A stretch of DNA of 55,594 nt, from assembly GCA_964362365.1 (NCBI GenBank), contig CAYIEF010000004.1, forward strand, positions 1-55,594, in the 5' to 3' direction. The number at the start of each line of letters is the position of its first letter. The first letter of the stretch is position 1. A program made the position numbers and the translations under genes. The notes below the pieces were generated by a model, which did not search any database, had not been told where the DNA came from, and saw only the letters and a program-made list of their open reading frames with translations. The DNA is from an uncultured Methanosarcinales archaeon (GTDB taxonomy: Archaea > Nanobdellota > Nanobdellia > Woesearchaeales > GW2011-AR9). Shown here piece after piece: positions 35,572 through 36,561 of the stretch.

Positions 35572-35742
35572 AATTATTTTGGTGGTTTTTGGATGTATGG
35601 AATAATCTTTGATGAAGATGCTATAGATTTTCTTAATACTCTTCCTAAAGAGATCAAAGAAAGAATTTTTAAGAAGATCATCTCAACAAAAGAAGACCCT
35701 TTCCATTTCTTTGAAAGATTAAGCAGTAGAACAGATTATAAA

Positions 35743-36455
35743 CGTATGCGCGCTGTTAGTTTCCCCTGAATACTTTTTGGGGTTGGATTTTAGTGCAACG
35801 TCCGGCGAAGCCGAAAAATACAAAGTTTGAGGTTCGAGCGTTTTAGATGTTGGTGTTGTACCTGTTGGGTAGTAAATGAACGAAAGATTTAAATACTTGC
35901 TATTAATAACTATACTCAGAGAGAATAAAATGGATAAATCAGAAGTTAAAGAATATAGAGAAAGAAGCGGGACTGCTGAATTGAAATTTGTAGATGGGTC
36001 ATATCTATTGCTAGTACCATATAGAAATTGGGGAAATATTGAAGGTTTTGATTCTGCATTGCTATATAAAAATGGAACTCTTGAAGCTTTAGCAACCGAC
36101 AGACCATCAAGATATTCAAGACCTGAAGAAAGTGGATTTTGGTCAAAAGGACAGATTTCTCAACAGCAATTAGCCGAATATCTAACTGCCGTAGCACAAG
36201 TCGGAAGACAAGTTTATGACGATTATCATGCAAAAAAAATTGATGAAAATACCTGGAGAAATCAATTTTGGGAATTCTGGAGAATAACTTCCGAAAGCGG
36301 AATGTTGAGAGAATCACTTAAAGAAGGAAGAGAAAGAGTTTTTGATAAAAATCCTGGAAGATACAGAGATAGAATATAGACACCAACCTCTTTTTTATTA
36401 TTTCTCAAATCTCTGATTTGACTATATTTTAGCCCGAACCTCAAATTGAAACTAA
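35743..36455. mobile_element. 713-bp cargo cassette with inverted ends inserted in relE
   Basis: TTAGTTTC (35756) / GAAACTAA (36455) and TTTGAGGTTCG(A/G)GC inverted pairs; carries one ORF, no transposase. Confidence 0.75.
35930..36379 (+). CDS. hypothetical cargo protein
   Basis: MDKSEVKEY... 149 aa inside the relE insertion. Confidence 0.65.
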   Translation: MDKSEVKEYRERSGTAELKFVDGSYLLLVPYRNWGNIEGFDSALLYKNGTLEALATDRPSRYSRPEESGFWSKGQISQQQLAEYLTAVAQVGRQVYDDYHAKKIDENTWRNQFWEFWRITSESGMLRESLKEGRERVFDKNPGRYRDRI

Positions 36456-36561
36456 TTAAGGATTGGCGATTATAGGATTATTGCAAATATTGATCACAGC
36501 AGCAAGAAAATAAATATCGTATTTATCGAACACCGGAAAAATGTTTATGAAAAAATGTAAT

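Follow-up and report, generated by a model that had tools for sequence, protein, structure and literature searches.

The stretch of DNA analysed here (hereafter the window) comprises positions 1 to 55,594 of contig CAYIEF010000004.1 (assembly GCA_964362365.1), deposited under an uncultured Methanosarcinales archaeon and placed by GTDB in the Woesearchaeales. At positions 35743-36455 it contains a 713-bp insert that splits a gene for a RelE toxin into two pieces. The insert is probably a non-autonomous, self-promoted cassette of an integron-like family of DPANN archaea, which entered relE by recombination at a secondary site. It is one defined cassette present in three genomic contexts, one of them inside a gene, and both of its boundaries as well as the crossover can be placed to single bases. 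The evidence from outside the window comes from contigs reached via proteins, from one pattern scan of genome contigs and from the assembled contigs of public sequencing runs; contigs needed in the argument are referred to by L numbers, and sequencing runs by X numbers.

The split relE gene and the position of the crossover

The interrupted toxin-antitoxin module consists of three features:

35332-35571, + strand: antitoxin gene, 79 aa, ribbon-helix-helix (RHH)/DUF7557-like, intact, upstream partner of relE (open reading frame (ORF) list and Pfam)
35593-35742, + strand: relE 5' fragment, codons 1-50, ending ...RTDYK (...AGA ACA GAT TAT AAA)
36456-36560, + strand: relE 3' fragment, codons 51-84, LRIGDYR...EKM and stop, lacking a start codon of its own

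The 3' half opens at 36456 with TTA AGG ATT GGC GAT TAT AGG and stops at 36560. Fused in frame, the two pieces give a RelE/ParE toxin of 84 aa, as had been proposed in a first-pass annotation of the sequence. The joined product covers the full Pfam ParE_toxin profile (PF05016; residues 4-81 on profile positions 1-89 of 89, 30.5 bits, gathering cutoff 23) and aligns without gaps with 15 homologues of 84-87 aa. In this alignment the break lies between the invariant K50 and L51, within the invariant block YKLR.GDYR, and the rejoined protein retains all 25 invariant columns. The 233 homologues (about 81-90 aa, at most 76% identity) are all uninterrupted, and the divergence of either half is in the normal range for the family. 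In its present form the 5' frame is extended by 8 codons of insert sequence, up to a stop at 35769. It is reasonable to conclude, as the first-pass annotation did, that the insertion inactivates the toxin, because the conserved C-terminal 34 residues are severed; neither an uninterrupted orthologous allele nor an excision product was found. The antitoxin gene is left intact. The antitoxin matches DUF7557 with E=3e-5, slightly under the cutoff, and its gene is called in all contigs carrying the insertion. At codon 75 (36531-36533) the split gene encodes Glu, a position at which Gly (G75) is present in at least 90% of the homologues. The change may have arisen as early decay once the gene was inactive, or may be a natural variant.

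The window derives from a DPANN archaeon of the Nanoarchaeota/Woesearchaeota type in groundwater metagenomes of Hainich well H51, and the identical insertion recurs in five contigs that were assembled independently from that well. In four runs both junctions are spanned by unitigs at flank depth and with 0 differences. Together, the five assemblies and the spanning unitigs exclude an assembly artefact. The metagenome mapping covered the assembled contigs of eight runs at 90% likeness, four of them also at 88% and 98%. Summed depth is 320-470 over the left-end module and 70-110 over the right end, compared with 7-10 in the flanks, so that the cassette ends are a multi-copy repeat of the community at 20-45 times flank depth (30-45 times for the left-end core). 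Matches from foreign contigs start at 35750-35755 and stop at 36455-36457, where depth drops from 44-103 to flank level. Since these matches begin and stop at the predicted edges and at high depth, the edges are true cassette ends and belong to a large repeat family.

The donor reads ...GAAACTAA↓CGTATG... and the target ...GATTATAAA↓TTAAGG... (here and below an arrow marks the point of exchange), and the products are ...TATAAA↓CGTATGCGCGCTGTTAG... and ...GAAACTAA↓TTAAGG.... The two points of exchange are each located 3' of an AA in the + strand (...CTAA↓C in the donor, ...TAAA↓T in the target), and zero bases were gained or lost. Only the ambiguous AA could count as a target duplication, which agrees with the earlier statement that none exceeds 2 bp. 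Read from the minus strand, the junctions are CCTTAA↓TTAGTTTC and CATACG↓TTTATAATC (CATACG↓TTTATAA): TT opens the cassette and a G closes it ahead of TT, and the G↓TT pattern reported in the first-pass annotation is thus borne out. Integron integrases (IntI) cleave the recombinogenic strand at AA↓C (equivalent to G↓TT), and the same reaction occasionally places integron cassettes in degenerate secondary sites. A G↓TT crossover without target duplication is what is found at the relE junctions, with boundaries confirmed by the other copies. An AA↓TT site of low specificity is the most fitting description of the target. In the event that we propose, the cassette would be released from an array together with the junction remnant, as one unit, and a site-specific tyrosine recombinase acting in trans would recombine it into relE at a fortuitous secondary site, codons TAT AAA↓TTA AGG. 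The enzyme would be a XerA-family recombinase like those beside the arrays of relatives, acting on folded single-stranded DNA (ssDNA). Selection probably tolerated, or may even have favoured, the insertion because it disarmed the toxin.

Ends, junction and copies of the cassette

The 713-bp cassette is organised as follows:

35743-35755, + strand: collapsed inter-cassette junction CGTATGCGCGCTG, 13 nt (L004 junction grammar; X4 contig)
35756-35763, + strand: left arm 1 TTAGTTTC, complementary to 36448-36455; pairs in the ssDNA fold
35764-35823, + strand: left-end module with hairpin 1 (CCCC...GGGG), core TTTTAGTGCAACG (35788-35800), hairpin 2 (CGGC-GAA-GCCG) and AAAAATACAA
35824-35839, + strand: left arm 2 AGTTTGAGGTTCGAGC, complementary to 36432-36447
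35845-35856, + strand: left arm 3 AGATGTTGGTGT, complementary to 36380-36391
35882-35895, + strand: box GAAAGATTTAAATA resembling a transcription factor B recognition element (BRE) and TATA box, candidate promoter
35930-36379, + strand: cargo ORF, 149 aa
36380-36391, + strand: right arm 3' ACACCAACCTCT, immediately 3' of the ORF stop codon
36432-36455, + strand: right end with arm 2' GCCCGAACCTCAAA, conserved ATTG and arm 1' GAAACTAA; last base of the cassette 36455

The insert ends with ATTGAAACTAA, and G-TTAGTTTCCCC is located near its start at 35755-35766. The end sequences and their complementarity are as first described, TTAGTTTC and GAAACTAA being perfectly complementary, and the left end does equal the reverse complement of the right end plus an inserted module, the ~60 nt at 35764-35823. 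An AT-rich stretch separates arm 3' from arm 2'. Cassettes of this family start with TTA and finish with TAA; within arrays, short spacers stand between them, or else hairpin bodies with AAC and GTT at their two edges. When the right end, the 13-mer and the left end are folded as ssDNA, three nested helices form with the module as a branched bulge. The fold energy is -31.7 kcal/mol, compared with -16.5 +/- 2.7 for shuffled sequences (z = -5.6), and 0 of 200 shuffles fold as well. A core of ~45 nt (35781-35828; TTTTAGTGCAACG, a short GNA-loop hairpin and AAAAATCAAAGT) is conserved across cassettes with different arms at more than 60 loci of metagenome-assembled genomes (MAGs; L017-L135) and may be a site for an accessory protein, a strand marker or an RNA.

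The BRE/TATA-like box, read from the sequence, also occurs in the L004 and L005 copies as GAAAGGTTTAAATA and is a candidate for the cassette's own promoter. The cargo ORF encodes 149 aa rather than 167 aa: most of its 22 homologues have 149 aa and start at the second Met. It matches no Pfam, NCBIfam or PADLOC family.

The span of insert positions 9-713, which begins at CGCTG↓TTAG and runs through the terminal ...ACTAA, shares 87.6% identity with L004, a contig of another study, and 86.4% with L005-L007, from another Hainich organism. The L004 and L005 copies stand within rows of small unrelated genes, their flanks are unrelated to relE, and their last base is that of the window copy. The copies also show that pairing within the ends is maintained. 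Arm 1 carries a compensated change (TTAGTTTC/GAAACTAA in the window, TTAGTTGC/GCAACTAA in L004), as does arm 3 (GGTGT/ACACC as against GGCGT/ACGCC in L004), and among the three copies the stems covary in hairpin 1 (CCCC/GGGG, CCAC/GTGG, CCTC/GAGG) and in hairpin 2 (CGGC/GCCG, GCC/GGC, TTCC/GGAA). The search for other copies and ends thus returned many homologues, arrays in two other contigs and unrelated flanks, and the copies in the L004 and L005 arrays support the first-pass proposal that a related cassette of a mobile system integrated at a secondary site. The outcomes that would have spoken for something else (ends without homologues, target-site duplications or a transposase at the other copies, an artefactual join) were all examined, and none was found.

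The L004 array also accounts for the nucleotides that precede arm 1. Its nine junctions have the form TAA, CGTATGCGA, hairpin body, TCGCTG and TTA. In general terms, (T/G)AA is followed by C-GTATG-CGA, by TTAAGAG... and ...CTCTTAA enclosing a body of 58-151 nt, by TCG-CTG and by the TT(A/C) of the next left end. The triplets flanking the body covary (CGA/TCG, CGC/GCG, GGC/GCC, ACA/TGT) and therefore lengthen its stem, with GTATG and CT remaining unpaired. An L004 junction minus its body is CGTATGCG plus CGCTG, which is the window 13-mer CGTATGCGCGCTG. The 13-mer is therefore a collapsed inter-cassette junction, made of the spacers CGTATGCG(A) and (T)CGCTG, from which the hairpin between them has been lost. 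The first-pass annotation had counted 12 extra nucleotides ahead of the left arm; CGTATGCGCGCT does precede G-TTAG, and we refine its meaning, since together with the G it forms the 13 nt of the cassette's own junction. The same 13-mer stands ahead of the same left end in a contig of run X4, behind the right end of another cassette (ATTGCGTATAA), and many MAGs have junctions that are likewise collapsed, to 13-15 nt around a small central palindrome (L074 CGTATGCGATCGCTG, L030 CATCGGAATTCCTG, L068, L093, L126). The xCGCTG spacer is constant at the left end in the window, L004 and L005, whereas the sequence after the right end is variable. From this constancy it follows that the mobile unit is the junction remnant followed by the cassette from left end to right end.

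The resident array, the wider family and its candidate recombinase

The window also carries an array, as follows:

52525-55594, + strand: cassette array with junctions A, B and C, continuing beyond the window end

Its cassettes hold 2-3 genes each, on both strands. In L005 the right end of the insert's cassette is followed by TCGCTG and then by a 177-nt module without ORFs (TTAAGCTT...AAGCTTAA), which is 97-99% identical to the sequence 3' of site C in the window genome. Since the L005 cassette abuts the module that flanks site C, the insert and the array at 52-55 kb are one system, as the first-pass annotation suspected. A reading of the right side of site C as chromosome has to be revised. 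Contig L013, which extends the window (reverse complement; equivalent to window 55541-56730), continues after site C with two tandem 177-nt modules, a gene cassette (TTAAGTGA...TCACTTAA) and another left end; the right side of site C is therefore not a chromosomal partner, and the array runs on past the window. Most assemblies stop ~55 nt past site C, presumably because of the module repetition, and the cassette beyond the window end encodes a 106-aa membrane-like ORF in L013. In a contig of run X2 an identical copy of the last 30 nt of the insert leads through TTATTG into a left end of the type found at A and B (TTATGTGACC...GAACGTAGTGAG). Array cassette 2 (54107-54708, minus strand) encodes a ParE/YoeB-like toxin of 111 aa and an 89-aa upstream partner; together with the split relE this makes toxin-antitoxin pairs both cargo and victim within one genome. 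An exact-protein look-up of the 211-aa array ORF gave no match.

One genome per species was scanned for the left-end core. It was found at more than 119 loci, about two thirds of them with the full left-end architecture. The hosts are mostly MAGs of Woese-, Pace- or Nanoarchaeota, and more than 60 contigs, mostly DPANN, carry the core. Bacterial matches in the core scan are mostly due to chance. A few of the loci lie in bins labelled Methanosarcinales, Bathyarchaeia, Aenigmatarchaeota or Patescibacteria. At L018, L021, L030, L057, L065, L066, L070, L029, L084 and L063 the left-end module is found in bins assigned to Thermoplasmatales, Methanosarcinales, Bathyarchaeia, Methanocellales, Methanophagales, Portnoybacteria/Patescibacteria and Deltaproteobacteria; these are either mis-binned DPANN contigs or cases of cassette spread across phyla.

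For the comparison of arms, right ends were defined independently of complementarity, by ATTG-N4-5-(T/G)AA and the junction signature. Arm 2 is specific to each cassette and is complementary, at 10 or more of 12 positions, to the 12 nt before the right-end ATTG in 16 of 23 cassettes, a level that non-self pairs reach in 2.2% of cases. For arm 1, complementarity is perfect in 10 of the 23, compared with a background of 11%. The 11-mer pattern ATTGRAHNTAA by itself is not significant (4 matches, 2.3 expected).

The arrays with this cassette have a tyrosine recombinase gene of the XerA family close by, at a distance of 0.9 kb in L005 and of 7 kb in L004. Among about 62 contig segments of up to 8 kb around left-end modules, 14 include a XerA-type gene, and L026 is a further contig in which it is linked to an array. 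The L005 enzyme passes the NCBIfam model XerA_Arch (238 bits, cutoff 220), while the L004 enzyme scores 205 bits; both fall below the cutoff of 265 of the integron-integrase model (208 and 184 bits, respectively). When the L005 enzyme is aligned to VchIntIA (2a3v), the alignment breaks at the IntI-specific domain, which the L005 enzyme does not have. The association with XerA-type ORFs beside the L004, L005 and L026 arrays suggests that the cassettes are mobilised by an Xer-family recombinase. A tRNA-like stretch between the L005 array and xerA was considered and was not confirmed by ARAGORN.

Competing explanations and known systems

Several observations weigh against a cassette that moved by site-specific recombination. 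No tyrosine recombinase gene lies within the window. Roughly half of the family has an imperfect arm 1. The likeness of the relE target to the right-end arm (8 of 11 positions) is not significant, 370 such sites being present in the window. Spacers of 5-15 nt or more than 100 nt are incompatible with a rigid double-stranded Xer core of the 11-6-11 type. No precise-excision joint, empty relE site or circle was found in the assembled contigs of the eight runs, from which rare variants are dropped; the joints sought were the rejoined relE (...GATTATAAA↓TTAAGGATT...) and the circular junction (...ATTGAAACTAA↓CGTATGCGCGCTGTTAGTTTC...), and the check for excision restoring relE that the first-pass annotation had suggested therefore came out negative. 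The uninterrupted alleles it hoped for are likewise limited to homologues: no orthologous empty site exists among the relatives with a 90-94% identical regulator, all of which are without relBE.

Two candidates for such joints were rejected. A single skip, in run X5, goes from 35722 to 36463 with 27 other letters in between; it is a different, uninterrupted relE homologue rather than an empty allele. A single backward joint, in run X3 (right end-TTCCTG-left end), vanishes at 98% and therefore derives from a related array or cassette and not from the window copy.

The comparison of the locus (window 35152-36561 against L139, L137 and L136, with regulator orthologues 90-94% identical) shows where relBE itself came to lie. 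In the closest relative (regulator orthologue 94% identical) the genes for elongation factor EF-1beta and the TrmB-like regulator are ~40 nt apart and relBE is absent; in two further relatives unrelated modules of two or three small genes stand between them. relBE is thus a strain-specific accessory insertion at a convergent intergenic hotspot for small modules. Immediately upstream of the antitoxin promoter region there is a perfect 12-bp inverted repeat (35240-35251 and 35270-35281; AGAGAACTTTGC ... GCAAAGTTCTCT), which may be the operator of the toxin-antitoxin pair or the EF-1beta terminator.

The explanation closest to ours is an arrangement like that of integrative mobile elements exploiting Xer (IMEX), in which cassettes are stacked at or near dif, the housekeeping XerA moves double-stranded circles via 11-6-11 cores, and the relE event is an off-target one. 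It overlaps with the secondary-site reading but denies an integron-like single-strand mechanism, and we consider it unlikely. Archaeal dif consists of two 11-nt inverted repeats around a 6-nt spacer and is cut at the spacer edges (PMC8371274). The minimal junctions of the family are indeed dif-like (ATTGAATATAA-TAAATG-TTATGTCCCCC and ATTGAAACTAA-TTCCTG-TTAGTTTCCCC), with the 11-6-11 core present at A, D, E and the right-left joint of X3, and the neighbouring recombinase passes the XerA model. The core is not found, however, at B, C and F (5 nt), at the left relE junction (13 nt) or at the L004 junctions (more than 70 nt), and a spacer that ranges over 5, 6, 9, 13-15 and more than 100 nt is hard to reconcile with it. 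Arms and hairpins that are cassette-specific and covary indicate base pairing rather than recognition of a protein-binding sequence. A two-strand exchange over a 6-bp overlap would, moreover, leave an overlap region common to both relE junctions, and there is none.

Entry without site specificity, through illegitimate recombination, template switching at hairpins or repair synthesis copied from an array, is very unlikely. The target offers AA/TT microhomology only and is not significantly similar to a site, hairpin-rich ends could favour replication slippage, and the deletion of the junction body is a change of the slippage type. Against this, both end points match array boundaries to the base (TAA↓ on the right, the junction TAA↓C on the left), and relE neither lost nor gained a base, which is rare for two independent random breakpoints. 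We find it highly improbable that the insert is a transposon resembling a miniature inverted-repeat transposable element (MITE), moved into relE by cut-and-paste through a DDE or HUH transposase. It is short, carries no recombinase of its own and has terminal inverted repeats (TTAGTTTC...GAAACTAA plus 16 nt); moreover, an rve-domain ORF with the integrase core of an insertion sequence (IS) lies within the L004 array (15517-16389), where it is probably an IS that landed there. But target-site duplication is absent beyond the ambiguous AA, and the other copies stand head to tail in arrays, at stereotyped spacers of 5-15 nt or hairpin bodies and not at random sites. The arms differ from cassette to cassette and yet remain complementary, so that one transposase would not recognise them all. 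The associated genes are XerA-type with no transposase tied to the other copies, and the junction remnant is carried along with the element. An intron, either archaeal with a bulge-helix-bulge (BHB) motif or of group I/II, would explain that removal of the insert exactly restores the frame and would allow relE to be expressed after splicing. We give this next to no credence: the boundaries cofold at -15.3 kcal/mol (shuffles -17.6 +/- 3.2) and contain no BHB motif, and the same element with identical ends occurs in intergenic arrays.

Compared with known systems, the cassettes resemble MITEs and non-autonomous IS elements in being short, in having terminal inverted repeats and in carrying no mobility gene, but differ in the lack of target-site duplication, the array organisation, arms that covary and a cargo that is coding and has a candidate promoter box of its own. 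Some of their junction cores resemble the dif of Xer/dif modules (an arm ending ATAA, 6 nt, a TTAT arm), and their candidate enzyme is of the Xer family. Toxin-antitoxin genes are also a frequent cargo of pdif (plasmid dif) modules. In Acinetobacter these are Xer-linked and often carry toxin-antitoxin genes (PMC6449649, PMC13141974). pdif sites, however, are oppositely oriented on plasmids, whereas those described here are direct repeats on an archaeal chromosome, the spacer varies in length, and nothing in pdif modules or IMEX elements corresponds to the cassette-specific arms or the left-end module. The interrupted gene is a typical member of RelE/ParE (PF05016) with an RHH antitoxin, full-length when rejoined and with its antitoxin adjacent, except that it is broken after codon 50 and has Glu at the nearly invariant G75.

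The likeness to integrons is more extensive. It includes tandem arrays of small accessory genes with toxin-antitoxin pairs among them, arrays that are mostly seen without an IntI gene, a G↓TT crossover and duplication-free insertion at a degenerate site. The L004 cassettes are separated by imperfect hairpins in an ...AAC / GTT... frame with unpaired spacers and a covarying stem, and are candidates for attC-like sites: 9 of 9 junctions show ...AA↓C, 4-5 predicted unpaired nucleotides, a covarying stem, a body of 58-151 nt and CTG↓TT, while the window junctions have 5-13 nt. At the same time there are clear differences. The enzyme linked to the arrays is XerA-type and has no IntI-specific domain; all three copies appear to have a promoter-like box of their own and genes lie in either orientation, in place of one common cassette promoter (Pc); three nested complementary arms and a conserved ~60-nt module are present at one end; and many junctions have only 5-15 nt, without an L box or variable loop. 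Folded single strands as substrates of Xer recombinases have a precedent in CTX-phi, whose integration uses a folded single strand and the exchange of one strand. Archaeal XerA also binds stem-loops (PMC8371274). Archaeal integrons described so far are mostly clusters of attC sites lacking integron-integrases (CALINs), with only six IntIs in 75 archaeal genomes, some of them Nanoarchaeota, and these IntIs carry the additional domain (Ghaly et al. 2022, PMC9668308). Our literature search returned no description of XerA-linked cassette arrays in DPANN.

Until now the cassette arrays of uncultured DPANN have been known solely as static sequence patterns; the relE insertion is a recorded movement. 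It fixes both boundaries and the crossover to single bases and also the side that owns the junction. On the more tentative reading given below, it would be the first natural off-array event of the system, with the crossover mapped to the base and the remnant moving with the left end. It is also a clean natural case of a mobile element that disarms a toxin-antitoxin module. More tentatively, and with somewhat less than even confidence, we suggest that DPANN archaea possess a form of cassette capture unlike that of classical integrons, in which a XerA-type enzyme free of the IntI domain would move self-promoted cassettes as single strands, folded into giant attC-like hairpins and cut at AA↓C. 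If so, the two ends of each cassette would pair to form such a hairpin out of three arms that covary and a structured module that is conserved, with a hairpin body at the apex in some cases, and capture of this kind would possibly extend to some neighbouring lineages. The enzyme, the choice between single- and double-stranded substrate, and whether a Xer protein free of the IntI domain performs integron-type chemistry can be tested at the bench with defined oligonucleotides.

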